The notes: generated from the sequence alone by a model not told the origin. A DNA stretch of 64,000 nt from a virus (IMGVR_UViG_3300037722_000745:128001-192000), one strand, 5' to 3'; positions 4,597 to 42,900 are shown, counted from the stretch's first letter. Numbers and translations: made by a program.

Positions 4597-4968
4597 TCAG
4601 CTCGCTGGCGATTCTTCTGAGATCTGAGGTGACTTCGGTGGCTGTAGAACCTCTAGTCTCCCGGTCTTGGAATCGATTGAAACTTGCGCGTCGGCAGCTA
4701 AGCCTCGCTCCAACAACACCTTCTCGAATAGCCGTTGCTGCTGCTGGTCGACCTGATGGGCCGCCGCCAACAGCTTCACGCGGCTTTGCTCCAATTCCAA
4801 AAGCCTCATCGCAATTCCGTAACGGGCTTCCTCTACCTGGTTGAACTCCTTGAGGACTTCCGGAGCGATGGGGTCTTCAGGGGTCAGTTTCTTGGGTTCT
4901 TTGTCATCGGCCATAGGAGAGGGCCTACACCAATGGTTGTTGCAGCCAGTCTTCGAGACGGCTCTCAC
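4597..4968 (-). CDS. Small coiled-coil hypothetical protein (likely start MADDKE)
   Basis: Overlaps the stop codon of the upstream gene; helical heptad content. Confidence 0.55.
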   Translation of the reverse strand: MRAVSKTGCNNHWCRPSPMADDKEPKKLTPEDPIAPEVLKEFNQVEEARYGIAMRLLELEQSRVKLLAAAHQVDQQQQRLFEKVLLERGLAADAQVSIDSKTGRLEVLQPPKSPQISEESPAS

Positions 4969-5591
4969 CCCCCAATGAATTTTCTGGGTGTTAACACCCC
5001 CCGACCGGTATACGGACCGAAGGCACTCCGGATCCCAATGCCGAACCGAGGTTGCTGAAGGCCCTTGACAACATTGATAGTCGCCTTGGCCTGCTCAAGC
5101 TGCTTGTCGAACTGGTCGCTGGAGAACTGGGCGGCGGCTTCGTATTTGCTGGACTTCTCTAGATCTAGCGAGACGCCGCCGATGGAGTAAGAATTGTGGG
5201 CCAAGATCCCATTAGCGAGAACAAAATTTTCCGGACCGGGGACACACAAATCGTATGTGAAATCCTCTGGAGCCGATTTTTCAACTGAAACTACCGGCAC
5301 CGACTCCACTGCGTTCCCATTGACAACCACGACAGAATCCCCCGGGCTCAATTGACCTGCTTCTATCGGTTCAATTCCAGGTCCGACACATTGGAACAAG
5401 GAATGATCTTGCGTGGTTTCCACGGACCTACCGTCCACCAGTTTGGTTACCACGATAGGTCTAGACCCGTGTCTAACAACATCCGACACACGACTTTGCT
5501 TCACCTCACTCGTAGAAGGGTCCACGGACAGAACGCGCAGCCCACCCGACCAAAAGGCTTTCCGAATTTCCTCTCGGGTCTCTGAGTCCAT
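4965..5591 (-). CDS. Split-intein C-fragment (133 aa) fused to the 75-aa C-extein of a probable head-tail adaptor protein
   Basis: Block B TTQDHSLF, block F TYDLCVPGPENF, block G ILAHN followed by Ser(+1) SYSIGGVSLDLEKSSKY; AAGGAG RBS 6 nt before ATG 5591; no block A present. Confidence 0.9.
   Translation of the reverse strand: MDSETREEIRKAFWSGGLRVLSVDPSTSEVKQSRVSDVVRHGSRPIVVTKLVDGRSVETTQDHSLFQCVGPGIEPIEAGQLSPGDSVVVVNGNAVESVPVVSVEKSAPEDFTYDLCVPGPENFVLANGILAHNSYSIGGVSLDLEKSSKYEAAAQFSSDQFDKQLEQAKATINVVKGLQQPRFGIGIRSAFGPYTGRGVLTPRKFIGG
5193..5591 (-). mobile_element. IntC half of an atypically split mini-intein
   Basis: Carries TxxH, block F Asp and terminal His-Asn (Asn codon 5195-5193); no endonuclease domain. 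Confidence 0.9.
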
Positions 5592-6561
5592 CCTTCACTC
5601 CTTCTAACCGTTGTATTTCTCGGCGCACGCGACTCAGACAGTCATGCCAATCCATGTTTATCTCGTGTTCTCGAAGCCGTAAGATGCTCCACCCCCTAGC
5701 CTCCAGATAAGTGGTTTTACGCGCATCGTACACAAGAATAGAGCCCACCCCCGCGTGCCCACACACCACGCAACCGTGCCAGTAACAACCATCCACTTCC
5801 ACTGCCAACTGTAGCCGTGGAAGAGCCTCATCGATCGAGTAGTATCCAACCTCATACTCCGTCACGAACTCATCTAGCCCGGACGAGATCAATTCAGCCT
5901 TAACATAGCGGTGAAGCTTCGAGAACCTTCGTTTGATGTGGCTTCGAGCGTGCTGAGCTAATAACAAAGACCGCTCTCTGTTCTCAGCGTGCCATTTCGC
6001 TACTGCCTCTCTCTGAGAACCTGACTCCCAGCGAGCCTTAGACTCTACGCCTCTAGCTCTCCGGTGCTCAGGATCCTGATTCAATTTCCGTAAAAAGTCC
6101 GCAGCCACCTCACGATAACCCAGTTCATGGTGCAGCCGCTTTGAAGCAGTGCTGATCTGTCGCCGCGTTAAAGTACCCTCAGCGGTCTGGAAACGGACTT
6201 TAAGGGTTTCCGATTGATGTGACCGTTGAGCTTCAGTCTTGGATCTACGTGAGATTGTCAGGGACGACGCTAAAGGAGCTTGCGGGTGAGCCTTCTGGTA
6301 CTTGCTTAATGTCAGACCAGAACAAGCACGGAGGTGTTTAAGAGTGATAGACGCTTGTCTTGCCCCACACTCACAGCAGACCACAAAATGCTCGCCTTCT
6401 TGAAGAAGTCTCACACTCGCTTCTGCTACCCCATACCCCTTACGAGCTAAGATACCCTTCTCTAGCAATGTCCGCAAATGTTTCGCATTGAAACCAAAAT
6501 CGAGCGAAAGCTGTCTCTTAGAAATCGCTCCCTTCTCCAACTTGTACCGAGCCATCTTCAT
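5506..6561 (-). mobile_element. Free-standing Vsr/DUF559-like homing endonuclease gene between the split-intein halves
   Basis: C-terminal EYEVGYYSIDEA...LAVEVDGCYWHGC...GWSILRLREHEI; N-terminal Zn-finger VVCCECG...HLRAC and NUMOD3-like basic helices; overlaps both flanking ORFs. Confidence 0.85.
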
Positions 6562-6649
6562 ACAGAAGATCGTACAAATCCTTTATAGGTAGAGTGATTC
6601 GTCGGTTACCCGGCAGCACAACAGTGACTTCCGTTCGGCCTGTAATACT
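6518..6649 (-). mobile_element. IntN half (43 aa, Ser1) of an atypically split intein
   Basis: Ser1 codon AGT at 6649-6647; S-I-T-G-R-T-E-V-T-V fits block A consensus [CS]-h-x-G-D-T-x-V. Confidence 0.8.
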
Positions 6650-7342
6650 GAATTCGTCAGCGATCCAATTGATTCGCAGGGCGTTGAGCGCGTGGATCAT
6701 CGCCCCGGTCAGCAAGAGGGTTCGCCACTCAGGCCGATACGACACCATCTGATCGATGCTCGAGAATGGGGTTCGAGGTGGAGATGCAGCGATCATGTCG
6801 AGCGCTCGCAAGAGGTACTCTTGCAGCTCCACGTCCTCCCAGATGTAGCCGAAGACCCGGCTGAACTGCTGGACTGTTTCCTCGTGGCTAGGTGGCCTGA
6901 AATGATAATTTCGGTCCGGATTCGAGTCTCGAAGGAGAATCCTAAGCCTACCCATCAAATTCAGCTCAGTCACGGAAGCACTCAGAGCACTGCCCGTGAT
7001 CATGCTCGCACTCGGAGTCGACAAACCCGCCTTGTCAATGACGGAGAACTCTTGCACCACCTGCTGAATCGATCCACCCACGACTTCCCTGAAGGTCCAT
7101 CGGATGCGGTAGTCTCCTAGGTTTGCATCCAGCGGAACCACGATAGAGGCGTAGTATTCCCCGACCGAAGGGTTGGCAGGCTCGCGCTCCGGAACACCGA
7201 TCAGGACTTCAGCCCCCGTGGTGAAGTCATAGAGGGCGTACGAGATCTCAGCCGCGTTAACCGGAGTGTTCGCAGCATTAACCAGAAAGATGTTGAGATC
7301 GTTCCGGCCGAGCTGTTGCCCTCTGTAGTAGGTGACGCTCAA
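6518..7342 (-). CDS. N-extein (231 aa) of a probable head-tail adaptor/neck protein fused to a 43-aa split-intein N-fragment
   Basis: After WIADEF the ORF continues SITGRTEVTVVLPGNRRITLPIKDLYDLL, which fits intein block A plus the PIxDL segment, and stops 43 aa later. The N-terminal Ig-like domain resembles the C-terminal domain of 8700..9455. The neck role is inferred from position. Confidence 0.85.
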   Translation of the reverse strand: MSVTYYRGQQLGRNDLNIFLVNAANTPVNAAEISYALYDFTTGAEVLIGVPEREPANPSVGEYYASIVVPLDANLGDYRIRWTFREVVGGSIQQVVQEFSVIDKAGLSTPSASMITGSALSASVTELNLMGRLRILLRDSNPDRNYHFRPPSHEETVQQFSRVFGYIWEDVELQEYLLRALDMIAASPPRTPFSSIDQMVSYRPEWRTLLLTGAMIHALNALRINWIADEFSITGRTEVTVVLPGNRRITLPIKDLYDLLYEDGSVQVGEGSDF

Positions 7343-7344
7343 GC

Positions 7345-8709
7345 CTACCCCTCAAGGGCTGCCCGGAATGCCTCAGCCGCTGCATTGGCCTTGGCGACCA
7401 AAAAGACAGCGGCCTCCTTGCCACCCGGCGTGTAGCCCTTGTTTTTCATATACCACGACAATGCCCACGGGTTGTCGATCTCGTCCGGGTGCTTCTTCAT
7501 CTTCTTGACGGTGTCCTCCCACCCCGGAGGAGATACCGCCTGGTGATCATGGCCGCAACCGCCGGTGCACTCACCTCCACAGTTGGCGAGAATCTGACGG
7601 AAGGCTTCGGCAGCCTCGGAAGCGGTCTTGGCTGCTTTCGTCTTCGAACCCTCGGACGGATGTTCCATCGCCACCAACGCACGAAAAGACTCCGCAGCCT
7701 CATCGGCTTCCTTCCTGTGTTTGTCTCGCTCCCCCTCCGCTTGTTCTAGCTTCTTCTTCAACTCGGCGATGTTTTTCTCACTCTGCTTGATGTCGTGCTC
7801 GATCTCAGCACGTTCCTTGTCATCCTTAGCTGTCTCCAACGCCTTCTGGTCATCCTTGAGCATCTTTTCATAGCGACCCACATCGCTCTTCATACGCTCC
7901 ACTTTGTAACCACGCTCACGTTGAGGACGCTCCGGCTTCTTGTACTTGTTACTGACCTCGTGCTTCCGCGGGTCAGCACGTGGATGATCCTTGAGATACT
8001 CCCGCAGGGCCTGCGGGGACGGATGGTACATTTTGCCCAAGACTAGACGAAACGCGTCAGCTGCGTCATTCGATGCCATCCTGAGTGCGCGTTCGATGAC
8101 CCTCTTCTGGGCCGCAGGATCGAGCCCCTTCAAAACCTCGAAGCCCTTATCCCCTGACACATCCTTCTGTTTGACTGGCTTGCCGTCATCCGACTTTTCG
8201 TTCAACAGTGCTTTCTGGATGACATCCTCACGCTTAGCTGGGCTCAACTTCTTGAGCTTGTCCCGAACGTCGAGATCCAGGTCACTGTTGTCATCCTTTC
8301 CACTGTCGGCAGGCTTTCCCTTGGGCTTGCTGTCACCCTTCAGCTTGGACTCCAACTTCTCGATGTTCTTATTGCCCGCATCGATGTCCTTCTGGATCTC
8401 CTCTCGCTCTTTGTCGTCCTTAGCTCCCTCTAGAGCGGCTTCATCGTCCTTGAGAATCTTCCGCTGCCTCTGGAGATCCTTCTCGGCACGGCCCTTAGCA
8501 TACTCTTTCTCACGCTTCGGGCGAGCCCGATCCCTGTATTTAGTCGAAACCTGATGCTTGGACTTGTCCGCGTTCGGGTGCTCCTTGAGATACTTGCGGA
8601 GAGCCCCTGGACTGCTGTGGTAGGTGACCGCTATCACAGAACGAAATTCGTCGGCCGCTGCGTTGGCCTTTGCTATGACATTGCGAGACTTATCCATGCT
8701 CAATCCCAT
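7345..8709 (-). CDS. Charged, internally repeated protein, putative internal head protein
   Basis: Two ~110-aa repeats beginning YHSSPGALRKYLKEHPNAD and YHPSPQALREYLKDHPRAD; five AA[DE]xFRxxLA-like motifs; C-terminal KKMKKHPDEIDNPWALSWYMKNKG module. Confidence 0.7.
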   Translation of the reverse strand: MGLSMDKSRNVIAKANAAADEFRSVIAVTYHSSPGALRKYLKEHPNADKSKHQVSTKYRDRARPKREKEYAKGRAEKDLQRQRKILKDDEAALEGAKDDKEREEIQKDIDAGNKNIEKLESKLKGDSKPKGKPADSGKDDNSDLDLDVRDKLKKLSPAKREDVIQKALLNEKSDDGKPVKQKDVSGDKGFEVLKGLDPAAQKRVIERALRMASNDAADAFRLVLGKMYHPSPQALREYLKDHPRADPRKHEVSNKYKKPERPQRERGYKVERMKSDVGRYEKMLKDDQKALETAKDDKERAEIEHDIKQSEKNIAELKKKLEQAEGERDKHRKEADEAAESFRALVAMEHPSEGSKTKAAKTASEAAEAFRQILANCGGECTGGCGHDHQAVSPPGWEDTVKKMKKHPDEIDNPWALSWYMKNKGYTPGGKEAAVFLVAKANAAAEAFRAALEG

Positions 8710-9455
8710 CCGAATTTACAATACCGTTCTAGTGTGTCTCCAGGGATCGGACACGAGACCGAATCCTGAACTTGGAAGTAGCAGTCGCTCTCCACTACAG
8801 GATCCCCATAGATTCTTTGGTGCTGCCAACGGACGGCCCACAAGCCTGGCTGCCCGCACTCGCCCGCAGTACCGGTCACGTAATAGCAGCCAACCCCCGC
8901 CGTGGCCGGCTTGCGGCCCGACGGTCCGATTTGCTTGAGAACGCAGCCCGGCTGCATCTGGTAGAGCGTGTAGGTGATGCAAACCGGACCAAATGGGTTA
9001 CCCCGACCATCGACCACCTTGAACATGAGGTCGCCTCGCGTGAAGACGTGACCCCAGCGGAAAGCTGTTGTAACGACTGGCTGCTGACAGATCGGCGGCG
9101 AGACATGGATGACTTCCATGTGCGCTGTCAAAATGCCCACCCCAACAATGGGATCCGGGACCGAAAAAGCGAACGCCCCCTGACCGCTTAGATAGCCACT
9201 GGCCCCTAGAATCACCTGTGCATCGGCTGAGATGCTACTCCCACCGGAAATAGCCCCCCCAGCGTCCAACAAAGTCTCATCGAGAAGAACTCCCGAACCG
9301 ACCAGATAACCCGAGGAATCAAGGATCTTCTCAGCATCAGCCGAGACGGCAGCGGACCCGACAAAAGATCCAGACAGAATCAGGTCGAGACCTGGACCAG
9401 CGCCTAAACCCCCCAGACCCGCTGCAACAACTCCGGCTGGCGCTACCCCAGACAT
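8700..9455 (-). CDS. Virion-associated protein with C-terminal Ig-like domain
   Basis: GDLMFKVVD...ITYTLY...VGCYYV...GLWAVRW aligns by eye with NDLNIFLVN...ISYALY...VGEYYA...GDYRIRW of 6518..7342. Confidence 0.6.
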   Translation of the reverse strand: MSGVAPAGVVAAGLGGLGAGPGLDLILSGSFVGSAAVSADAEKILDSSGYLVGSGVLLDETLLDAGGAISGGSSISADAQVILGASGYLSGQGAFAFSVPDPIVGVGILTAHMEVIHVSPPICQQPVVTTAFRWGHVFTRGDLMFKVVDGRGNPFGPVCITYTLYQMQPGCVLKQIGPSGRKPATAGVGCYYVTGTAGECGQPGLWAVRWQHQRIYGDPVVESDCYFQVQDSVSCPIPGDTLERYCKFGWD

Positions 9456-11512
9456 CAGTCGTATTCAGAGTACCCCAGCAAGAGGTACCCAGTCCCATCC
9501 ACCGAAGCATACTCATAGGTGGTTTCGAAGACCGCATCTGGTGCCGCTGGTTGAGTCCCAGAAACAAGAACCGTTCTCCCAGCCGCCACAAAACTGACCA
9601 CATGACCCCCGGAACCGTCATTCACAAACAACACTCGACCACCGTACCCGTCCGCACCATTGGTCAGCGTGAGGGTGGTGTCCCCAGACAGACAGTCTAA
9701 CATCTGCCAATTGTTCCGCTCTCTGACATCCAGTGTCACACTGGACGAGTACGCAAAAGTACCACGCTTATGCTGCTCAGCGGCATACACGATCTCGGTT
9801 TCATTGGTCTCTAGTCTAGAGATCACACCACCGCTAGCGTGTGGTGCCTTCGATTCTGCAAAGCCTGCTTGGTTAGTGGCCAAGTCGGACCATGAAAAGG
9901 TCTCTTGGCTAAGATGGCAGTCTCCTTTGTCTCCAGTGAGATTGGGGTTACCGAACTCCAAACTAATGTGGCCACCAGAAGCCGCATTGAGCCCAAACCA
10001 CTCACTGTGGCCATGGGGACCGTAGTTGTTATTGAAAATCTTGATCGTACCTGGGAATAGAGCCCGGACAGCACTACCGGACGTGATGTAGCTGAACACT
10101 CCATTGCTCAGCACAACCTTCGGACCCGTCGTATACAACCGGCAGCGGTCGAACAGAAACGGAACCGTACAGAACCCAATCTCAAAAAAAGCGACCGTGG
10201 TTATACGGATCTGGACCTCAGCTTCTCCTCCATCCAATCCGCCAATCCTCCCTCCGATCAGCGTGCACTTGAATGGATCCAAGGCTGACGCAAAGATACC
10301 ATTCCCCGCGTGCAAGATACCGTAGAAGTTCACCCCTCCATCTAGTCTCATGTTCTGCTTGACATAGGTTCCCCATCCAAGCCAGGCGGAGTTGACGGAG
10401 CTACCACTCAACTCTTCACGGGCAAAGTAACCGCTTAATAGTGAGGTACCCTCGTAACCCAAACGGGCCTCATCATCTACGCGAACTCCATGCATAGTCA
10501 CGGTGCTCGCCGAGAAAGTCAGATAGGTGAAAGGGGTGTCCGCCGTAAAGCTAACGTTCGAAATAGCCACTCCAAGCGGCAATTCCTCATTCGGCTTCTG
10601 GAACACCTGATGATGCCCGGGTCCGAACCCAACGGTGAATGGGAAATTGGTCGCAGGACCACCGACGTCAATCTTGACCGCAGCCTTCACAATCCGGAAC
10701 GTGTCTCCAGCATCCAAGACAGCGGGAAACCAGTAGGCCGGCAGGACAACCAAATCGTCGGTAGACCAAGCCTGTTCGGCGTAATCAGACGACGCCTGAT
10801 AGAAAGTTTTCCCTCCATTGGATGTGCCACTAAGGACTTCGACTTTGGCTGCATCGATCTCCTGAACACTATCCGCGTCCTTAGCCCGCTCCCATGATCC
10901 CGTTCGAACGATGTGGATACCGCTCTCAGCTGCCGTGGTTTGGCCTGGGCATAGAACACGATCTCCATCGGAGAGGGCTACGCCATCAACCGTCTGCTCT
11001 CCACTCAGTGTCAAACTCTCCGTGGCAGCAGCGGCTACAGGCTTCTTTCTCTGGTAGCCTCGAATCGTCCGCCTAGCTGAGCTGTTGAGTGCGTTGGTAG
11101 TGCTTACGGCTTCGAGTGTGCAGTCTTGGTACTCGTCACTACCTACAGACTCTGTCAAGACGAGACGTTCCCGAGTTGAAGCTGCGGAAGCTGTCAAGCC
11201 TGTCGCAAGCTCCTCAAAGTCCTCCCCACGGAATACAAGAGTGCCCGTCGCCGTGAACCGGCTGCCATCAAATGGTAGCAAGGGGCGGAGGATCGTCCCA
11301 TCCCCTAACAGATGTACAACGCACTGACGAATACCGAAGTGCTGCTCTAGCTCTACCCGCAGCTTCTCTAGTCCTTCCTCCGGACCCCAAGGACTCGCCT
11401 CGCTACCGTCTCCGCTTTCGGATGACTCATTGGAGTCAATCCAAAACTCAAGATCCCCAGCACCAATCTTCAATGAACCCATGGCTTGTCCCTTCTTAAA
11501 GCGCTCCAACAA
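9455..11512 (-). CDS. Tail fibre/spike-like protein, paralog of 11496..14006
   Basis: Common fibre module ATESLTLSGEQTVDGVALSDGDRVL...GIHIVRTGSWERAKDAD; G/S/T-rich beta repeats. Confidence 0.65.
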   Translation of the reverse strand: MLERFKKGQAMGSLKIGAGDLEFWIDSNESSESGDGSEASPWGPEEGLEKLRVELEQHFGIRQCVVHLLGDGTILRPLLPFDGSRFTATGTLVFRGEDFEELATGLTASAASTRERLVLTESVGSDEYQDCTLEAVSTTNALNSSARRTIRGYQRKKPVAAAATESLTLSGEQTVDGVALSDGDRVLCPGQTTAAESGIHIVRTGSWERAKDADSVQEIDAAKVEVLSGTSNGGKTFYQASSDYAEQAWSTDDLVVLPAYWFPAVLDAGDTFRIVKAAVKIDVGGPATNFPFTVGFGPGHHQVFQKPNEELPLGVAISNVSFTADTPFTYLTFSASTVTMHGVRVDDEARLGYEGTSLLSGYFAREELSGSSVNSAWLGWGTYVKQNMRLDGGVNFYGILHAGNGIFASALDPFKCTLIGGRIGGLDGGEAEVQIRITTVAFFEIGFCTVPFLFDRCRLYTTGPKVVLSNGVFSYITSGSAVRALFPGTIKIFNNNYGPHGHSEWFGLNAASGGHISLEFGNPNLTGDKGDCHLSQETFSWSDLATNQAGFAESKAPHASGGVISRLETNETEIVYAAEQHKRGTFAYSSSVTLDVRERNNWQMLDCLSGDTTLTLTNGADGYGGRVLFVNDGSGGHVVSFVAAGRTVLVSGTQPAAPDAVFETTYEYASVDGTGYLLLGYSEYD

Positions 11513-14006
11513 TCACATAAGCAGTGCTAGCGATCGTCACGTAGTGATACCGAAGCTCAAATACATCATTGGGGCCAGACGGAACCGTTCCTTTGACGAC
11601 GACCGTTCTACCGCTGGCGACCACGGTGATCACTCGACCTCCGACAGCATCTTGCTGCCCCAAGATGCTGCCTTTCCAACCGTCTACCCCATTCGTCAGA
11701 GTGACAGCCATATCCCCCGTGGCTACATCGCTCAACGCCCAGTCATTACCGATGCGTAGGTCCAAAGTCGGGGTGGCTGCGAATGCGAACGACTGAACAA
11801 CGGTCCTTCTACCGCCTCGGACTCCAACCACGCCGGGTATCCGATAGATGTAAGCGCCTGTGACATAAGGCTCAGAGAAGTCCCCTACCCCTTGGCCCGT
11901 CCCAGAGAATTCGTAGTCCGTCCACAACCCCTGATTAGACTGAACACGCCAGTCCGCCACGTCCCCAGTCAGATTAGGATTGCCATTCTCCAGCTGACAC
12001 CTGCCACCGGATAGGCAGTCAACTCCTACATCCGTAGAGTGACCACTCACGCCGGAGATCAGTTTTGCTTGCCCAGGAGCGAAAACATGTACGGCTGGAG
12101 CACCTTCGATCCACGAAAACAGGGTCCCTCCGGTAGAAAATAAAGCGTTCATCTTTACCGATGGGCCTGTGGTGGATATTCGAGACCGATCGAACAACAC
12201 AGGCACCCGAGAAGAGGTGATGACAAACGACGCTTCGCGCACAATCCTCATCTCGACTATACCTTGACCGCCTCCGCTGCCCCCGATTCGACCACCTTCC
12301 AGCTCAACGTAAAACGGTTGCTCTGAGTTAGCAAATAAACCATTTTCCAAGATGACGTGACCAAACAGCTTTGCGCCGATGTCGTTGTTGAAGTTCTGGA
12401 CATGCCGAAACCCCCACCCCCTCCACGTATTAAAGGATGCCGTACCTGTAAGCCCAGAGTAAGATGCTGTCCCCGACATCATGGTTCCAGAAGGAGCCCG
12501 AAATCTAACTTGACCGATGAAGTCTACTCCCCAGATGGACACGGTTGAACGATCGCAACCCAGCACGGCAAACACGCTTGAGTTCACAGCGAGATTGATC
12601 AGAGTGATGCCAGGAGGGTACTCTCCGGTAGCAAACGCCAGCGTGTCCTCCTGTGTCCCTGAGTAAAAGCCATCGCAAAAAGCGATGGTACTCGCCTGTG
12701 CAGCACCACCAGGAAGCTCAAGCGTTGCTGCGGGCTCGACAACTCTGAACGTGTCCCCGGCCTGGGGAGAACTCGGCCACTCGTAAGACGGGACAACAAC
12801 CCGATCGACGGTTGTCCACGATTGAGTGCTAAAGCTGACCGAAGACTGGTAAAAGGTGGACCCTCCATTGACCGTGCCCCCTGACACACTGACGCTCGCA
12901 GCGGTCACTTCCGCGATACTGTCGGCATCTCTAGCCCGTTCCCACGCGCCAGTTCGAACGATGTAGATGCCGATCTCAGAAGCCGTTGCTTGAACAGGAG
13001 CCAGGCAACGGTTGCCATCCACTAGGGCCACATCATCGACCGTTTGGGCCCCGGACAAGGTCAAGCTCACCGTGGCCGCAGCGTCTACTGGGCGCTTGCG
13101 TTGGTAGCCTCGAATGCGGCGGCGAGTACCGGCATTCGCCCCGGTAATACCCTCCAGACTGGCATTGCCAAGAGCAGCGGTACCGTAATCAGAGTCAAGC
13201 ACGGCTTGAGTGACATCCGAACCTGTGCCAACCGTAACGGACGCAAGCTCAACGAAGTCTTCACCTATGAAGATTAGGCTCCCCGTGGACCCAAACGGAG
13301 CACCATCAAACGGCTGGGCTTGCCTGGGTAGTGACCCAGACCCCATGATGTGGACTTCACACCGATCGATCCGAACATACTTTCGAAGCTCGGACCAGAG
13401 GGCCTCCATGCCCTCATTACCGCCCCAGGGGTCAGCCTGGGTGCCGCTGCCCGCGCCCCCAGGGTCGTCCGTATCGATCCAGAACTCTAGGGTCCCAGCC
13501 GCCCCAATAACGCCCTCCAACTGCTCCACCGTGCGACGGTAGAAGGGGTGGTAGCCACGAACCGACCCTCCGACGTTACGTTCCGTGACTAAAGCAACCC
13601 CAGGACCGTTGTTGAAAAGTGATGCATCCGGATCCCCCCTCTCACCGAGGGCTGGGTAATGCAAGGCGTAGTTAGGGCTAGCGATACTTGCGATGCGACG
13701 AACTTTCTCAACAGCCGCATCAGGCAGAGTTCGTTCTAATTCAATCCTGAAAGGACCGTAGACTGGAGCCGAAAAGGTGATTTGCCATAGGGTTGGCGTG
13801 ATCTCCACTATCGAGGAGTTCGCCCCTTCGGGCTCATCCGCAATCCGCACAACATCCGTCGCCCCTACCACAGGATCTGTGATGGTGATCTCGATGGGAT
13901 ATCCAACACCCCCTCCTGCGTCCTCTCCGGAGATGTCTTCCCTAGCTTCTCCTGGAGTACCTGGAGGGATCCCCGCAGTAGGCTGGTCAATTTGAAACAC
14001 CGGCAT
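11496..14006 (-). CDS. Tail fibre/spike-like protein, paralog of 9455..11512 with an extra N-terminal domain
   Basis: ATVSLTLSGAQTVDDVALVDGNRCL...GIYIVRTGAWERARDAD; shares the LEFWID...PWG and RRxIRGYQRK segments and the C-terminal domain with its neighbour. Confidence 0.65.
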   Translation of the reverse strand: MPVFQIDQPTAGIPPGTPGEAREDISGEDAGGGVGYPIEITITDPVVGATDVVRIADEPEGANSSIVEITPTLWQITFSAPVYGPFRIELERTLPDAAVEKVRRIASIASPNYALHYPALGERGDPDASLFNNGPGVALVTERNVGGSVRGYHPFYRRTVEQLEGVIGAAGTLEFWIDTDDPGGAGSGTQADPWGGNEGMEALWSELRKYVRIDRCEVHIMGSGSLPRQAQPFDGAPFGSTGSLIFIGEDFVELASVTVGTGSDVTQAVLDSDYGTAALGNASLEGITGANAGTRRRIRGYQRKRPVDAAATVSLTLSGAQTVDDVALVDGNRCLAPVQATASEIGIYIVRTGAWERARDADSIAEVTAASVSVSGGTVNGGSTFYQSSVSFSTQSWTTVDRVVVPSYEWPSSPQAGDTFRVVEPAATLELPGGAAQASTIAFCDGFYSGTQEDTLAFATGEYPPGITLINLAVNSSVFAVLGCDRSTVSIWGVDFIGQVRFRAPSGTMMSGTASYSGLTGTASFNTWRGWGFRHVQNFNNDIGAKLFGHVILENGLFANSEQPFYVELEGGRIGGSGGGQGIVEMRIVREASFVITSSRVPVLFDRSRISTTGPSVKMNALFSTGGTLFSWIEGAPAVHVFAPGQAKLISGVSGHSTDVGVDCLSGGRCQLENGNPNLTGDVADWRVQSNQGLWTDYEFSGTGQGVGDFSEPYVTGAYIYRIPGVVGVRGGRRTVVQSFAFAATPTLDLRIGNDWALSDVATGDMAVTLTNGVDGWKGSILGQQDAVGGRVITVVASGRTVVVKGTVPSGPNDVFELRYHYVTIASTAYVIVGAL

Positions 14007-31632: not shown

Positions 31633-34600
31633 TTACGATCGGCCCAAAGCATACAAACGACCTTTTTCTAGCAGCCGGGCCGCCTCACTACCTGTAACGG
31701 GTCGGCCAAGAACTTGCCGGCAAGCCGCTAGGTAGGTCTTTTCATCTTCATATGGGGCCGAACCTCCCACATCCAGTACGACCCGATAAACTCTGTTTTC
31801 ACCGGCCATGGTGGTCTTCTGGCCCATGAGATCCATGACCCTAGAGACAGCCAGTATCTCCCTACCTGTGAAGCCTGCTGCCTGCACGCGCTTCCACCCG
31901 CCTTGCTTGTGTAAGATCAGGCCCTGAAGCACTCTCTTAGTTCTCTGCTTACCTACAAAAGAAAACACAGATCTGGCTATCTTTCGCCACTCTGGATGCT
32001 GTAGAGCTGAACGGATCAAAGTATCGTTCTGCGTATTCGGATCATGCGTGCGGATCTCATCCACCTCAGACTTGCTGATCTCGTCCCTAACCTTGCGGAT
32101 AGCCTTTTCCCGAATTGCGTCCGTCAGATCCGAAACTGCCTTGTCAACCGGGTCCTCCTCCACCTCTGGACTCGATTCAGTCTCTGGTTCGAAGGTGTCT
32201 GTGAAATCCTCTTCCTGCCCCAGCGTCCAACGAGCTGCCCTCGACATGTGACTAGGGTCCACTACAGGTGTCGGCATCAAAAACGCCTTGTGGAGCTGCC
32301 TTTCCACACCCTCAGGCACGCCATGCGTGATGATGTTCCTGAGAACGGCTCCTTTGAACGCTGGGTTGGCGACCCATGACGCCTCGATGAAACGGACCGA
32401 GTTAGGATCCGTATAGTGACCGCAATTGTGCGATGCTAGTCCTTCGACCAAATAGGACTCATCCTGATCTACGGCCAGATTGTACACTTTCCCGTCATAG
32501 GTCCGACGACTCAAACCTCTGATGGAGTACAACATGTAACCACGAAACGACCTCCATCTAGGGCCGGTCCCTCTTTCGTGATCAACGTCGAAGCCAAAGA
32601 ACTGCGTTGTCTCGTCGGAAGGTTGGAAATGCAGTTCATGCCTAGGTTTAAGACCATCGATTCCTACACAGGCATCCCCATTCACGACTTGAGCTATCTC
32701 AACAGACCGTCCTTCGTAGACCACTTGCCTACGTGTCCAAAACCCGCATCGTGCAGACACCAATTGCATTTGAGACACCAACGTCTCAGACACAGACGAC
32801 CCGTAATGTCGTGCTACTCGATCAACTGATCCATCCCCATGAACGTAGGCTTTTAGAATTTGCCTTTGAAGCCTAACAGGCCAGTACAATGCTTCTTCTG
32901 ATAGTCGTTTGCTATCTGAGTATTCCCCAGCGTGTCGATAGAACCAATCCGCTGCTGACGTATTGTTGTACGCAACAACGAGCTTGAGGCCACCTTCCGT
33001 TCTCTTGTATAGGTGAACCCGCGGTTCACATCGAGCCCGAGCGTTGTACTGAGTCAGTTTGGCGAGATGTTTACGGCCCGAATTGGCTTCATAGTTAGTT
33101 GTCCTCTCCGACAAAGCTTCGTCTTGAAGTGAACACCACACTCGGGCACGGCTTCTTCTACGACCTTTGACATCCAACCTTTCCCCTGGCTCTAGGGGCC
33201 TAGAAGACACAATCCCTTTACGCGCATAACGGCGAAGAATCGCACCTACATACGACGACGGGAAAATCTGTTTTAAATCACACGTCAGTTTGGGCGTTTT
33301 CAAAGCGTTGAGTAACGAATCAGTTGCATTGCCTCTCCCATGCGAACGCCGCTTTGGTGGAGAGGTCAAACGTTGCTCTGGCGTGAAGCATTTCTCCAAC
33401 AAACCAGCCAACCGGTGCACCACTTCATTCTCATCCTCCCCGTTCAGGGTGAACTGCACACCGCGGCGCTGACCCTTATGCTTGATGAAGGACCCTTCCG
33501 CTAGGAACCAGCCCAACAACTCTGCGCGATCCTCATCTACATCAGAAACTGAGACCCTTTGTTCTGTGAGTATGGGCATGCCAAGCACATCCCCAGGACG
33601 TAGATCTTCAGCTTTCTTGAACACGAACTCAGGAGGGGACAAGGACACCACCTGATTAGGGTTGTGCCCTTTCAAATAACGTCTCCAGAATCTAGCCTTA
33701 CCGAAGTCTTTTGGCCTTGGTAATTTACCTCCACACCCGCAAGCACACTCGTCCCGTACAGACAGTACCCAGAATGGATGTTCTGGCGTAACTTGCAATG
33801 TTTGGGGCACCCCCTCTGCCTTCACGGCGATCAAAGGACCCCGATACGATCGCTCAAACACCCGTGTGACCTCTCGGGGCACACCCTTATGAGTCACGAC
33901 CATGTCCCCGACTTGGAGGGTTTCTACCCCCCTACGGCTCCCATCACTCATCACAACCCGGGATCCGGAAACGAAACAAAGCTCAGCTACTTTTCGCTTG
34001 ATCCCCAGACCGTCGATGAACTCACTGCCCTTGAAGTAACGCACACAAGGGCACAAATGGGTTTCATCCTCCGCAACGTTGCCGCACTTGGTGCAGATCG
34101 TGGACGAGGTTGTGCAGCCCATCGAGAGCGTTCCAAGTTTGCCGCTCTTGATCGCCCGAATAAGCGGGGCGTGCTTGAGATCGTTCGCTATCAGAATGTC
34201 GATGTAGACCGAATCCCCCACATCGCGAGCCGCTGCATCGATGATCCTGCCCTTTGACAGCTCAGGGATCTGAACGTGCTCCACATAAGACTGAGCCCCA
34301 ATGAAAGTCTTGAAGCTCGAGAGCAGCAACTTCCGCTCAAAGGAATCGCAGTTATGAACAGAGACGCCGTTAGCCAAATAGGAGTTGTCCCCTGCAACCT
34401 CCAAGTTGTACACAGGCCCTGAGTAAGAGAATCTATCAATCTTCTCTACCATCTGAAGATGATAGCCGTTCAAAAACCGTAACTCAGGTACGCGCTGAAC
34501 TCCGCCGTTGGCCTCTAACGACGCACGGTATCCAGGTTCGTAGTAAGTACCTTCGACAAGATTCTCTAACCACCCTCCACCACAAGCTACCTGCCAACTG

Positions 34601-35910
34601 ACACACCTCTTTGAAGGATCGCTCTCAATACGAACTGATCCGTCCTCTGATCGCACCCTAGACCGACCATCGGTCTCACTTCTAGTTAGATGTGACGACA
34701 CCCCCAAACGGTGGAGCATCATCTGCATCTGATTAGCCATAGATCGACTAGCTGTGGACCCAGTGAGACGAAAATCAGTCTTGGATGTAGTGAAACTCCC
34801 GTCTCCCTCAAACCACCCTTGCAACAGTTCACGTTGCACCTCTACAGGCGCCCGAAGAAGATCGGAGTGGAGCCTCTTAGTCTTCGACTCACCTGGGACC
34901 CAATGAGAAAAGAACTGAACGAGATCCCTATTGACCGCCGTGTCTACATGGATCCCGTTGTCATTAGAATGAGGGTGGATCTTAGCCTCGACCCCAAACT
35001 CCGACTTGAGCAACGCCACTACAGATTTCGCTAGAGACGCAGTCTCATCCCTGTGGAAAGCCCACGTGGGGGCTACCTTCTCATTGCCCTGGTAAGCGTA
35101 AAGCTTGTAGTAACCCTCAGCAGCGAATAAGCCCAGCAGCCTGGCTTGACCTAAGGTCAAACCAGGGTCAACGGTGTCTCGTAGAACTGGTACCGAAGTG
35201 AAGTCGGTCCTGGACAAATTCTTGGCCTCAACAAACTCACCTGACTTCACCGCCAAGAGCTGCTTGTTCGAGACTCGCTTAGCGTAGTAGCACTCCTTTG
35301 AGCAATAATGCTTACCCAGCAAGAAGGAGATACAGTGCAGACTTCGATGTACTGGCTTAGAGCAGACAACACAGTTAGAAACGGCACGGAACACGAAGAA
35401 CGGATGTTCTCCCGTTACCTCCAGACGTTCTGTAGTCCCACGCGGTTTGATTCTGTAGATCTCTTCAGAGACTTGACGAGACATCACCCGGACTACTTCT
35501 TGCGTGTTCCCTAAGTGGGTGACAACAGAATCCCCCACCTGAACTTGTTCGATGGCCTTCATTGAGCCATCAGCCATCGTGACCAACGTGCCCGGCACGA
35601 AGCAGTTGTTGTTGATGTACTGACTCGTCTCGGGAGTCACATAAAAGTCAGAGTACTTTCGGTTGACTTCAAACCCGTCTACTAGATGACGACCCAGCGG
35701 ATCGGGCGAGTCCGAGACATCCACCGACGCAACGATCGTCGCATGGCTCAGCATGTAACGGGACGGATCGTACTCTTGAAGGATTACCCTGGCTGTGCGC
35801 CTCTGAAAATCAGGTGAGGGGATAACAGCTTTGCTACGCAAGGCGTCCCACTCAGAAAACTTGATGCCAGGCTTTTGGAGCGTGGCTTTGGCGTACTTCA
35901 TGAAGGCCAT
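31633..35910 (-). CDS. Prohead maturation protease (HK97/herpes assemblin fold) with Zn-ribbon, interrupted by two inteins; about 489 aa after splicing
   Basis: Exteins join to give NNN/CDSF...YVEH...SKGRIIDA...LSMGC...CTKC...HLCPC...EL/CG...FIEASWVANPAFKGA, giving catalytic His and Ser (SMG) and a C-terminal ExSxVxxPA motif. Confidence 0.75.
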   Translation of the reverse strand: MAFMKYAKATLQKPGIKFSEWDALRSKAVIPSPDFQRRTARVILQEYDPSRYMLSHATIVASVDVSDSPDPLGRHLVDGFEVNRKYSDFYVTPETSQYINNNCFVPGTLVTMADGSMKAIEQVQVGDSVVTHLGNTQEVVRVMSRQVSEEIYRIKPRGTTERLEVTGEHPFFVFRAVSNCVVCSKPVHRSLHCISFLLGKHYCSKECYYAKRVSNKQLLAVKSGEFVEAKNLSRTDFTSVPVLRDTVDPGLTLGQARLLGLFAAEGYYKLYAYQGNEKVAPTWAFHRDETASLAKSVVALLKSEFGVEAKIHPHSNDNGIHVDTAVNRDLVQFFSHWVPGESKTKRLHSDLLRAPVEVQRELLQGWFEGDGSFTTSKTDFRLTGSTASRSMANQMQMMLHRLGVSSHLTRSETDGRSRVRSEDGSVRIESDPSKRCVSWQVACGGGWLENLVEGTYYEPGYRASLEANGGVQRVPELRFLNGYHLQMVEKIDRFSYSGPVYNLEVAGDNSYLANGVSVHNCDSFERKLLLSSFKTFIGAQSYVEHVQIPELSKGRIIDAAARDVGDSVYIDILIANDLKHAPLIRAIKSGKLGTLSMGCTTSSTICTKCGNVAEDETHLCPCVRYFKGSEFIDGLGIKRKVAELCFVSGSRVVMSDGSRRGVETLQVGDMVVTHKGVPREVTRVFERSYRGPLIAVKAEGVPQTLQVTPEHPFWVLSVRDECACGCGGKLPRPKDFGKARFWRRYLKGHNPNQVVSLSPPEFVFKKAEDLRPGDVLGMPILTEQRVSVSDVDEDRAELLGWFLAEGSFIKHKGQRRGVQFTLNGEDENEVVHRLAGLLEKCFTPEQRLTSPPKRRSHGRGNATDSLLNALKTPKLTCDLKQIFPSSYVGAILRRYARKGIVSSRPLEPGERLDVKGRRRSRARVWCSLQDEALSERTTNYEANSGRKHLAKLTQYNARARCEPRVHLYKRTEGGLKLVVAYNNTSAADWFYRHAGEYSDSKRLSEEALYWPVRLQRQILKAYVHGDGSVDRVARHYGSSVSETLVSQMQLVSARCGFWTRRQVVYEGRSVEIAQVVNGDACVGIDGLKPRHELHFQPSDETTQFFGFDVDHERGTGPRWRSFRGYMLYSIRGLSRRTYDGKVYNLAVDQDESYLVEGLASHNCGHYTDPNSVRFIEASWVANPAFKGAVLRNIITHGVPEGVERQLHKAFLMPTPVVDPSHMSRAARWTLGQEEDFTDTFEPETESSPEVEEDPVDKAVSDLTDAIREKAIRKVRDEISKSEVDEIRTHDPNTQNDTLIRSALQHPEWRKIARSVFSFVGKQRTKRVLQGLILHKQGGWKRVQAAGFTGREILAVSRVMDLMGQKTTMAGENRVYRVVLDVGGSAPYEDEKTYLAACRQVLGRPVTGSEAARLLEKGRLYALGRS
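32425..33978 (-). mobile_element. LAGLIDADG intein (518 aa), second intein of the protease
   Basis: CFVSGSRV start, TPEHPF block B, LLGWFLAEG and KAYVHGDG motifs, VYNLAV...LASHN/C end. Confidence 0.95.
34351..35604 (-). mobile_element. LAGLIDADG intein (418 aa), first intein of the protease
   Basis: CFVPGTLV start, TGEHPF block B, LLGLFAAEG and LQGWFEGDG motifs, VYNLEV...VSVHN/C end. Confidence 0.95.
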
Positions 35911-39902: not shown

Positions 39903-42900
39903 CTAGAAACGCGGATCCTGGGCCTCTTCCTCCGGCTTACGCTGCAGCTTGAGGGTCTCAATGATCTTCTCGGCAACGTTCGTCTGCTCCACGATCTCTT
40001 GAGCCACCGTGCTGTAGATAGCCCGTAACACCTCGTTGAACAGAGCATCGTTTACAGTGAACAGATCCTTCTCCAGCTTAACCCGCGTGTCATCTGCATC
40101 GATGTTGAACATCTCCAAAATGAGACTGATGTCGATCGAACCCTTGTTGTAGAGGTTGAACAAGGCATCGTACGTGTCCTGAGAGTCCCTAAGAGGAAGT
40201 CGCGTGAACGACAACCTGGGGTACAGCACAACTTCCTCACCCCACGCGTTCTTCTCGACAAAGCCTTTCCGACGGGAGACCGGTTCAAATAGGTAGCGTT
40301 CAACATACTCTTGAACCATCTCACGAAGGAAGAGGTACCGAGTGTTGATCACCTCCAACTTAAGACGATCACCTGAATAGAGAGTCTCCCCAGACAGCAA
40401 ACTCTCCGTGACCCCCAAGCCAGCGTAGAGTTGTTTATCCGTGATCTCATACTCACTCGACAGATCAAGCAAGCGATCTCTGGCTCCCATTTCCTCCCAT
40501 CGAACCTCATAGTTGGTCACGATAGAGTAGTCTGGGTCGACCAAAGCAAGGTCCACTTGCTCCCTCAAGTCCATAACGTCAACTTCGGAGATCCGATCAC
40601 CCCAGATGATCCGTTTAGGCGTCATCGCCCGGGAAGCAATCTGAGTCTGCGCTTGCCGTAGCTTCTCCCGATACATGAGAGTTCGGAGGACCCGGTCCAA
40701 GATGCTCTGACCCAATGGTTCTCCGGCCCCTCGACGTCCAGCCATGTAGTAGCAAAAAGAGCCCTCGTCCGGATCTGTCCCCAGAGGAATGAGCTTCCCC
40801 TGCTCCATGTAATCACGAACTTCCGCAGGTAATTCCCTGACCACCATCTCCGCGAATTCATCCCCCGACCTAGCCTGCTCAATCAAAGCCCGATCCTTAT
40901 CGGAGGGGATCAGCTCGATCCTCATTTTGTCGGTGAACGAGTGTGCCGTCGTCGCTTTGACTCGATCAATGGGTATGATTATCAGGCGGTCCCAGCCTTT
41001 GTACTCTTTCTGGTAGTGCCCGAGTTCCTGGTTTTCGCGGTCCTCACGCTCTACAAGGCCGATCTCCGGTTCCTCTTTGGCTTCACCGTCCTCCGTGACG
41101 ATGTATTTAACTCCAACCTGCTTCTGGTCGTAGCCAAGCTCCGCAGGGACGTCTACTTCGGAATCCTCTGCGAAGATAAAACAATTGTGTGTGCTAACAA
41201 AACCAGCCCTGAAAGTGTGGTCGCGGTCTACTTGGAAGTTGTATACGGTCTCATCGGGATAACCTTCCACACCCCTAATCAACAAGGCCACTTGGCCTGC
41301 CACGCGTTTGTAGGAAGTGTGACGCGATACCCATTTGGATTGAGCTAGAAGCCGATCCGCTTTGGTCGCGTACTTACACAACCGACGGCTTTCATCCTCG
41401 TCGTTCACAGTCAGAACGTACGACGGCCCATTCGATTGCACCCGCTGACCATCGATATACGAATCTGAGGCGGGCGGGGCTACACGTAAAGACGGAACAC
41501 TCCCAACACGTAGAAACAGATCTCTGATGTGGTAGATGAGCCCTTCGGACACCATACTCAGTTGCACCACAGAGTTAGTTGTCGTCCCAACTGACACGCA
41601 ACCGTCTGAGTCGATCAACCCCGCAACTAAATGCAACTGCTTGTCTGCTGGCAACTGCATGACCCAATTGGGGATACGTTTCGGATTGGGGCCTTTCGAC
41701 GTGCACCCGAATTGAGAAGCCCACCACTCCACAAAAGCAGGATTATGAGTCACAGCCAGAGACACACACTCTCGGTCGGTTCTCTCATAAACTCTCTCTG
41801 AGCCAAACCACTGATCTAGGATCCAACGGACACGTTCCCTGTGCGTGTTCGACTCAGACCCAAAACATACGGACCAGACACCGCGGCCCCACGAGGAGCG
41901 ACTTGTATCACGAGTCAAAGTCCCATCCCCCAGCCAATACCCCAGTAGGTAAAGGAAATCAGCGTCGACAGGAAGTTCTCGCGGAGCTTGGAAACGGTAG
42001 TCTCGGTTGATCTCGTAGTACCAACTATTTTCCTCGCCCGACCAGAGAGGCAGCCAAAGTGTGTGGTCTCCGTGTTTAGGACCGGTCGCAACCCTGCGGC
42101 GGAAGGGGTACGGAAGTTCCTGATCAAGGGTCAAGATGACATTGTGGAGCGTGTAAAGAGGGACCCCGAGTTCTTCCGCTATAGACGCTCGGGATCGCCT
42201 AACCGGTTCTTGTAGAGAGCACAACCACGACAACAAACCCAACCGAGCCCTGGCCGCGTTCTCAGATCGGGGTCTGACCTGAGTTCGAGTTACTCTGTAC
42301 CCACCGTCACAAGGTTCCACGAACGCGGGTAATGGATCCAATAGGGACACCTCGGACACGTCGGCTTCACCTACAGGCCACGTAGCTCGAACGAAATCCC
42401 CTTCTCTAAGGTCTCCAGTTTCAATGAACTCAAACCGATCACCTCGAACCACCTCGATGGGATGTTCTCTTGTCAAGTTCAAGCGACCAGGAAGTCGTGC
42501 GATGTCAAGGCTAAGGATATCCTCGCCCGCTCGTTGTTGGACGGCTTCAACCGTTCGCCAGCGCCCTGTGTGTGTTAAAACCTGATCCCCAAGCCCTATC
42601 TCATCCGCCCTCCGCTCTCCGCTGGGAGTAGAGATCAGCGTCTCACCCGTCACGCACCCGCCGTCCAACCAGTAGTGGTGGACCATGGTGACTAAGCGTT
42701 GGAACAGCTTGATCTTGTCACACATGCGAGTGAAAAACCAAAGGATGTAGTTGGCGTAGTCGTGGGTGTCCTTAAAACGTTCCGGATGCGTTTGAGGCTT
42801 TGGAGTCGCCAACCGGACCTTGGACAATGGCAGTTCTGTGTGGAGGTCGATCGACTGACCTACGATCGGATCTGTGTTGTAGAAGTGGCGATAGATCTCC

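Follow-up and report, generated by a model that had tools for sequence, protein, structure and literature searches.

A probable fractured gene in a jumbo phage: a split Ser1 intein in an adaptor-like gene, with a predicted EDxHD/Vsr-like homing endonuclease gene in the break

We analyzed a stretch of 64,000 nucleotides (IMGVR_UViG_3300037722_000745:128001-192000, here called the window), which belongs to the 323-kb record of a jumbo phage from soil and sediment. The record is 68% complete, its genes all lie on one strand, and it also contains a terminase, a portal gene and several further intein matches. At positions 4965-7342 of the window, on the minus strand, we observed three overlapping open reading frames (ORFs), each in a different frame. 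Taken together they look like a gene broken within an intein: the N-terminal extein with a short N-terminal intein fragment (IntN), an endonuclease gene, and the C-terminal intein fragment (IntC) with the remaining extein. ORF 1 and ORF 2 overlap by 44 nucleotides (nt; 6518-6561), ORF 2 and ORF 3 by 86 nt (5506-5591). An earlier reading of this DNA from the sequence alone (the original prediction) had described the three ORFs, an IntN of 43 amino acids (aa), an IntC of 133 aa and both overlaps exactly as we found them. The features are as follows.

6518..7342, minus strand: ORF 1 (N-extein and IntN), 274 aa
6650..7342, minus strand: N-extein, residues 1-231 of an adaptor-like protein, TTG start, C-terminal ...NWIADEF
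6518..6649, minus strand: IntN, 43 aa (SITGRTEV...LYED followed by GSVQVGEGSDF) and stop codon; Ser1 is ORF residue 232
5506..6561, minus strand: ORF 2, free-standing endonuclease gene, 351 aa, with Pfam DUF559 and PHROG homing endonuclease matches
5592..5604, minus strand: ribosome-binding region of the IntC ORF (GAAGGAG at 5598-5604, GAAGG at 5592-5596), read from the sequence
4965..5591, minus strand: ORF 3 (IntC and C-extein), 208 aa
5193..5591, minus strand: IntC, 133 aa, with NX R40-H41, block B T60-x-x-H63, block F D114 and H132-N133
4965..5192, minus strand: C-extein, 75 aa from Ser+1 (SYSIGGVSLDLEKSSKY...) and stop codon; aligns to residues 232-306 of intein-free homologues

ORF 1 ends with ...NWIADEF, then SITGRTEV...LYEDGSVQVGEGSDF and a stop codon. 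In ORF 3 the intein ends with ...GILAHN and is followed by SYSIGGVSLD. The predicted junction peptide of the joined exteins is ...ADEFSYSIGGVSLDLEK. The Shine-Dalgarno sequence GAAGGAG lies 6 nt upstream of the ATG of the IntC ORF at 5591. A 6-bp hairpin (AUCUUC/GAAGAU) surrounds the first AUG of the endonuclease ORF (window 6550-6575, minus strand) and is reminiscent of translational hairpins in other fractured genes; the 121-nt region folded no better than shuffled sequences (z = -0.73).

The three-ORF locus is genuine and is no assembly error. Contigs from four other sequencing runs (three from sediment, one from soil) covered 4900-7400 with 0 differing letters and 0 gaps. Single contigs spanned the junction at 6518-6561 in three of those runs and the junction at 5506-5591 in all four. 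Assembly indels, which the original prediction had named as something that would undo it, are thus not seen at either junction. The same order of three genes recurs in separately assembled relatives with 60-77% protein identity, namely two JGI contigs (434 kb and 371 kb) and two assemblies from ENA. In these relatives the N part has 253-263 aa, the DUF559/MTES_1575 endonuclease 319-328 aa and the C part 207-228 aa, and the overlaps are small (20-32 nt between endonuclease and IntC, 1-26 nt between IntN and endonuclease).

The two outer ORFs correspond to one gene in two pieces. The joined exteins (231 + 75 aa) give 306 aa, which is the length of many uninterrupted homologues. Protein searches with ORF 1 returned three groups of sequences: many homologues of 296-311 aa, aligned over the first 231 residues only; proteins of 455-480 aa that include a domain of intein type; and many proteins of 252-267 aa covering about 95% of ORF 1. 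In the alignment, the intein-free 306-aa alleles read WIADEF-[D/N/S]-YSIGG without interruption. The proteins of 455-480 aa contain a contiguous intein (about 165-175 aa) which starts with Ser at exactly the same point and ends in HN|S, and the split alleles terminate 29-43 aa after the same Ser. The insertion point lies between F231 and the residue preceding the conserved YSIGG hairpin. The closest intein-free 306-aa homologue (P0005) is 89-90% identical to the N-extein over its N part and 76% identical to the C-extein; both extein halves are free of stop codons. We found no second copy of the host gene in the 323-kb record. The joined product of about 306 aa that had been predicted thus has uninterrupted counterparts. 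These counterparts do not carry the SITG... tail, so the tail cannot be regarded as a normal part of this protein, which had been the other consideration weighing on the prediction.

Next to the alignment, the intein residues themselves were considered. Pfam Intein_splicing aligned with residues 15-133 of ORF 3 through profile positions 18-155 out of 155 (E 1e-12); the score of 48.6 bits exceeds the cut-off of 35.8. The match spans all but the start of the profile; therefore ORF 3 holds every intein block except the first. All class-1 residues are present in the window, with S232 in ORF 1 and R40-H41, T60-Q-D-H63, D114, H132-N133 and S134 in ORF 3. Among 31 contiguous alleles, Ser1, the NX His, the block-B Asp-His-Ser, the block-F Asp and the terminal His-Asn were invariant, and the block-B Thr was present in at least 90%. 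Every split allele listed begins with Ser1. In 114 IntC-bearing proteins the +1 residue was Ser in 86, Thr in 28 and Cys in none; TxxH was found in 109 of them and [R/K]-His at the NX position in 100. This NX motif was described as a signature of inteins with Ser1 and Ser or Thr at +1 (Pasch et al. 2023, PMC10189870). In the window intein neither position 1 nor +1 is a Cys; two Cys, C68 and C116 of IntC, lie away from the junctions. The intein has the features of an atypical split, that is a short IntN and a 133-aa IntC which carries NX, N3, C2 and C1, all motifs but N1. The last 13 residues of IntN are not conserved and overlap the endonuclease ORF. They are probably dispensable, and function seems confined to approximately the first 30 residues. 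Judged from its residues, the intein looks fully competent for splicing.

Structure prediction agreed with this picture. A contiguous allele (P0002:228-408) was modelled as a HINT fold with a mean predicted local distance difference test (pLDDT) of 93.2. Its nearest structures were the Pho RadA, TFIIB and DnaB mini-inteins (template modelling (TM) scores of 0.66-0.86), the best being Pho RadA (TM 0.75/0.81), and phmmer gave a match to 4e2u at 7.8e-10. On this model, the break of the split alleles maps to the loop between helix 26-33 and helix 48-59. This loop is the sole hypervariable stretch of the contiguous-intein alignment, with roughly 0-50 extra residues. Predicted docking of IntC 1-150 with ORF 1 residues 215-274 scored 0.79, compared with 0.01 for the best of three controls; a mark of 0.79 was attained by 51 of 78 solved complexes and by 2 of 108 mismatched pairs. 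The docking runs agreed in at least 76% of contacts, the pLDDT of the partner was 62, and the contacts were confined to ORF 1 residues 230-261. The docking prediction supports binding of the two halves.

ORF 2 scored above the Pfam cut-off for DUF559 (29.5 against 20.6 bits, 7e-7) and below that for Vsr (13.8 against 27 bits), and it matched PHROG homing endonucleases. In 36 homologues, an N-terminal motif (C62, C65, H76, C80) and a C-terminal block (E255, D257, C259, Y260-W261-H262, C264, C267, D279) were invariant or nearly so, and the EDxHD set (E255, D257, H262, D279) was invariant. The profile built from these homologues found the DUF559 protein 3hrl (1e-7) and I-Bth0305I, 3r3p (8.5e-4). 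Pfam detected no NUMOD or helix-turn-helix (HTH) DNA-binding motif in ORF 2, which has the Cys/Cys/His/Cys motif instead. This zinc-finger-like motif weakly resembles the Ros/MucR zinc finger (E 0.08), which we treat as a lead only. ORF 2 is the only endonuclease copy of its kind in the 323-kb record, and its last 30 or so residues are unconserved read-through. We regard it as a predicted EDxHD/Vsr-like homing endonuclease. G+C content at third codon positions was 0.51-0.52 in IntC and the endonuclease and 0.68-0.69 in both exteins. This contrast fits a mobile element in which IntC and the endonuclease arrived together.

The identity of the host protein was approached through its fold. No Pfam or PHROG family was found for the N-extein ORF, Pfam on 43 intact homologues gave only noise, and the profile of intact homologues found nothing below E 0.38 among PDB sequences. 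A model of the intein-free homologue built with 43 sequences (pLDDT 80) consists of a beta-sandwich (1-102), a helical core (124-229 and 245-268) and a hairpin (233-240) made of the conserved YSIGGVSL. The C-extein carries the beta-hairpin and the last long helix. Searched against the PDB with Foldseek, this model yielded nothing beyond Ig-like hits for the N-domain and a single weak row for an adaptor; the adaptor signal came solely from an exhaustive structural aligner. With the latter, residues 123-284 matched chains of the neck or portal-tail complex of many phages: Pa223 (9nwi_A, Z 10.9), cyanophage A4 (9k09_d, Z 10.3), KHP30 (Z 10.1), GP4 (8jov_2, Z 9.9, root-mean-square deviation 2.4), T4 gp13 (9lu4_D, Z 9.8), the PhiM1 adaptor complex (Z 8.3), the phage 812 neck (8q01_b, Z 8.2) and the P1 connector (Z 7.7), where Z values of this kind may reflect a common arrangement in helical proteins. 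The N-domain matched macroglobulin and Ig-like domains. The adaptor of phage 812 is likewise composed of a beta-sandwich, a helical core and a beta-hairpin, and its hairpins build the tube of the DNA channel (PMC12886913).

The only cultured relative found was Tunturiibacter phage Tunturi_5 (309 kb, soil), whose homologue (31% identical over 93%) was annotated by the depositor as a head-tail connector protein. A language-model atlas gave weak leads to gp13 and connector families (0.81-0.83), which we did not count as evidence. The consistency of the adaptor matches gives moderate support for a head-to-tail adaptor fold. The neck or adaptor role that had been proposed for the host is thus upheld at the level of fold, by Z values of 8-11, an architecture like that of phage 812 and the Tunturi_5 annotation, while no sequence family confirms it. 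The intein sits at the end of a long helix, directly before the hairpin, so pieces left unspliced would part the hairpin and the last helix from the rest of the protein. Further proteins touch on this fold. A neighbouring ORF (8700-9455, minus strand, 251 aa) shares the adaptor-like N-terminal beta-sandwich at 8742-9056 (28% identity, E 4e-5), possibly as a paralogue that serves as a decoration or neck domain. In BFVD, the adaptor-like model was matched by two proteins of Bacillus phage G, gp160 and gp165.

The site is occupied in several ways among related phages. We tallied 408 proteins, most of which represent clusters formed at 90% or 50% identity, and counted 128 with an empty site, 38 with contiguous inteins (157-208 aa), approximately 40 split on the N side and 59 with the endonuclease fused to IntC. 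The original prediction had allowed that the pair might be absent from databases; in fact hundreds of unannotated alleles are present. Split alleles occur in many phages, on contigs of 165-590 kb. In a distant clade the endonuclease is in frame with IntC and the C-extein, giving a protein of 508-523 aa after a separate N part with a 57-aa IntN. This in-frame fusion was found in at least 55 clusters, on contigs of up to 590 kb, and the fused layout was observed in two unrelated samples (L011:3069-5451 and L012:1597-3979; proteins P0147-P0151 and P0302-P0352). No in-frame maxi-intein of about 800 aa was found in the 150 top-ranked representatives or in the 120 highest-ranked matches to the fused form.

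We compared these states with a FastTree phylogeny of 180 N-exteins. The empty, contiguous and split states needed at least 42 changes, compared with 57.8 +/- 2.3 after shuffling (minimum 50); for the presence of an intein by itself the minimum was 34 changes, and for split against contiguous forms it was 11. The tree is a quick one and recombination is likely, so it was read qualitatively. The nearest extein relatives of the window are empty (90%, 88%) or contiguous (87%) alleles and none of them is split; its IntN is closest to that of another split allele. These interspersed states suggest that the element has often been gained, lost or exchanged. The host family also has two further intein sites, one with Cys1 at LRDN|C...N|[S/C]PDRNY and one with Ser1 at PDRNY|S...HN|SF. 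Inteins at these extra sites are carried by P0163, P0166, P0181, P0223, P0366, P0161 and P0214, and in some of the proteins there are two inteins, or a contiguous one together with a split one. One intein-free allele is followed, a few kb downstream (L014:8919 onward), by a gene with a Pfam match to Volactin, which is actin-like.

Taking these results together, we consider it highly probable that the locus is a genuine fractured gene, in which a split Ser1 intein interrupts an adaptor-like gene and the gene of an EDxHD/Vsr-like homing endonuclease lies in the break. The ORFs, the Pfam matches, the alignment, the docking and the endonuclease profile all agree with the fractured-gene reading put forward in the original prediction. 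The intein would be broken in the variable loop after its first helix, approximately 30 residues in, with the endonuclease gene occupying the break and overlapping both halves. The three ORFs would be translated separately, the C half from its own strong Shine-Dalgarno sequence. The short IntN would then dock into the nearly complete IntC and complete the HINT fold. Standard four-step splicing through oxyester intermediates would yield the 306-aa adaptor, with Ser left at the junction. The endonuclease would cut endonuclease-free alleles in co-infecting relatives and so spread the element. The product would be located in the virion, and virion assembly would depend on trans-splicing.

We weighed this against four other explanations. 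The intein halves could serve purely as a non-covalent dimerisation module, with the exteins working unligated, like the intein-less fractured NrdA of phage Aeh1. The predicted binding of the halves would suit this, and fractured genes assembled without splicing are on record (Dassa 2009, PMC2677866; PMC3045599). However, Ser1, the NX and block-B His, the block-F Asp, the terminal Asn and Ser or Thr at +1 are strictly conserved, and these residues matter for the chemistry and not for binding. An intein of about 176 aa at the base of a channel-forming hairpin would, moreover, find little room in an adaptor ring of twelve subunits. We therefore hold this explanation to be improbable.

We give a similarly small chance to a ribosomal frameshift in the 86-nt overlap, by which a fusion of endonuclease, IntC and extein would also be made here. 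The in-frame fusions of the relatives speak for it, as does the length of the overlap, which exceeds the 6-69 bp of Dassa 2009 (PMC2677866). Against it, no slippery site was seen, though none was sought, the strong Shine-Dalgarno sequence and ATG of IntC lie inside the overlap, and the overlap is only 20-32 nt in close relatives. The unconserved read-through at the end of the endonuclease also counts against such a fusion.

Slightly less probable still is a decaying pseudogene, in which insertion of the endonuclease ruined the intein gene, the fragments stay unjoined and another protein acts as the adaptor. The incompleteness of the record and the 13 unconserved tail residues on the IntN ORF would be compatible with decay, and splicing is here a prediction. 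On the other side, every catalytic residue is retained in the window and in approximately 100 alleles, split alleles are spread over many phages, the record holds no second copy, and the extein halves are stop-free and 76-89% identical to intact homologues. Finally, indels in assembly or sequencing that broke one frame, so that a maxi-intein with a nested endonuclease domain is seen as three ORFs, are very improbable: the pieces do overlap on the same strand and the endonuclease is truly in frame with IntC in distant relatives, but the four other runs and the diverged relatives from other samples show the same three ORFs, the IntC ORF has its own Shine-Dalgarno sequence and ATG, and no version of about 800 aa appeared in searches able to admit one.

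Several points weigh against the interpretation of the locus as a fractured adaptor gene. The independent runs have a low read depth over the locus (approximately 5x), and all runs that contain the stretch are recorded as DNA and none as RNA. The docking result may partly mirror the model's memory of solved inteins. As the record is 68% complete, a second, intact copy of the host gene may lie beyond it. With no Pfam, PHROG or PDB sequence match, the host protein has no curated membership of an adaptor or connector family, and its role is drawn from fold similarity at Z 8-11, which is an uncertain range for helical proteins.

The architecture itself is of a known kind, with a precedent in Dassa et al. 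2009 (PMC2677866). Fractured genes were defined there from 26-27 marine loci encoding DNA-metabolism enzymes and a terminase. Their endonucleases were Vsr-like, and the 3' end of the endonuclease gene overlapped the IntC ORF by 6-69 bp in 15 loci. One terminase intein was "fractured at an unusual point", with a C part of 122 aa holding all motifs but N1. In this respect the original prediction overstated the novelty of the locus, since a terminase was already among the fractured hosts and one unusually fractured intein already kept only N1 upstream.

Among the closest parallels are this terminase locus, GOS-TerL and AceL-TerL, in which a phage gene is likewise split by an intein whose break is close to the N end, and an endonuclease gene separates the two parts. 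The C part has 122 aa in the Dassa locus, 104-115 aa in the TerL inteins and 133 aa here, and in all of them it holds every motif except N1. IntN has 25-37 aa in the atypical TerL inteins and the Dassa locus, compared with nominally 43 and functionally about 30 aa in the window; equivalence of the break points was judged from published lengths and motif content, not from an alignment. Atypical TerL inteins have Cys at one or both junctions (Ser1/Cys+1 in GOS-TerL, Cys1/Cys+1 in AceL-TerL), whereas the window has Ser1/Ser+1, and their host is terminase, whereas in the window the intein interrupts a non-enzymatic, adaptor-like protein predicted to belong to the virion.

Fractured genes of the canonical type (among them gp41-1, NrdJ-1 and IMPDH-1; Dassa 2009) share with the window three ORFs on the same strand, phage origin, a free-standing Vsr-like or GIY-YIG endonuclease and the overlap between the endonuclease 3' end and IntC. 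They differ in the N4/C2 break, in an IntN of 88-105 aa and an IntC of 33-54 aa, and in their hosts, which are enzymes of DNA metabolism. Their endonuclease gene is preceded by a spacer of 27-51 nt, whereas here the endonuclease starts 44 nt inside IntN and there is no spacer; the overlap with IntC is 86 nt here compared with 6-69 bp in the Dassa loci.

According to Humberg 2026 (PMC13014065), no natural cysteine-less intein with an atypical split is known apart from PolB16, and other natural candidates are lacking; the remaining cysteine-less split inteins that these papers name as characterised come from PolB-type polymerases. PolB16 OarG (PMC10189870) resembles the window intein as a natural atypical split with Ser1, Ser or Thr at +1 and [R/K]-His at NX (R40-H41 here). 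It differs in its PolB DNA polymerase host, a 15-aa IntN and a dispensable block-B His; the window intein has an IntN of approximately 30-43 aa, as well as C68 and C116.

I-Bth0305I is the prototype of EDxHD/Vsr-like homing endonucleases (Taylor et al. 2011, PMC3239194), which were first noted in fractured genes (PMC3239194; PMC2677866). Like ORF 2, it is associated with phage mobile elements and has an N-terminal DNA-binding region and a C-terminal nuclease of Vsr fold with Glu, Asp, His and Asp. Unlike ORF 2, it is intron-encoded and has NUMOD/HTH motifs in place of the CxxC...H...C motif, and the similarity of ORF 2 to 3r3p is at the level of profiles only. The adaptors of phage 812, T4 (gp13) and podophages share with the host protein a helical core, a beta-hairpin, an outer beta-sandwich and a size of about 300 aa, but have no detectable sequence similarity to it. 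We found no paper reporting an intein in head-to-tail adaptor proteins, and the literature on split inteins together with neck, adaptor or jumbo-phage structural proteins did not yield this family, within incomplete coverage. What differs from the known systems is the predicted non-enzymatic virion host, Ser1/Ser+1 with a break approximately 30 residues in, the endonuclease start overlapping IntN, and the size and variety of the family.

Other genes of the window and the record were also noted. A portal-like ORF of 1092 aa (39903-43181, minus strand) and an ORF of 1425 aa with a match to head-maturation protease (31633-35910, minus strand) both show intein-type matches, to PHROG families in which intein-bearing enzymes predominate. 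Across the entire record there are at least 5 further matches to Intein_splicing. Directly upstream of the split gene (7345-8709, minus strand) lies a very charged, coiled-coil-like protein of 454 aa with no family match, which contains the internal repeats YH.SP.ALR.YLK.HP.AD..KH... and A.EAFR. Two adjacent ORFs of 685 and 836 aa (9455-11512 and 11496-14006, minus strand) share one domain of approximately 90 aa; the PHROGs that it matches carry the annotations tail fiber, head decoration or virion structural protein.

The window locus and its approximately 40 allelic split forms (IntN of 29-43 aa, Ser1, Ser or Thr at +1, NX His) are candidate tools for ligation without dependence on reducing agents. 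Their IntN is short enough for peptide synthesis, and such reagents are said to be lacking (PMC13014065). Empty, contiguous, half-fused and fractured alleles of one site are interspersed in hundreds of related genomes, so that the gene-fracturing model of Dassa 2009 becomes testable by comparison. It is conceivable, though we lean slightly away from it, that the full series at this one virion-gene site (empty, contiguous mini-intein, endonuclease fused to IntC, free-standing endonuclease) is a true evolutionary series. In that case the endonuclease would have joined or left the intein in the loop after motif N1; an endonuclease would then be naturally associated with an intein elsewhere than at the canonical N4/C2 site, with an EDxHD nuclease as part of an intein fragment, and the family would yield dozens of natural Ser1/Ser+1 pairs with an IntN of approximately 30 aa.

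In summary, if the adaptor assignment holds, this phage would make a structural adaptor by trans-splicing, which would extend fractured genes beyond nucleic-acid enzymes. A trans-spliced adaptor fits with the other inteins of this phage, in its portal and head-maturation genes.

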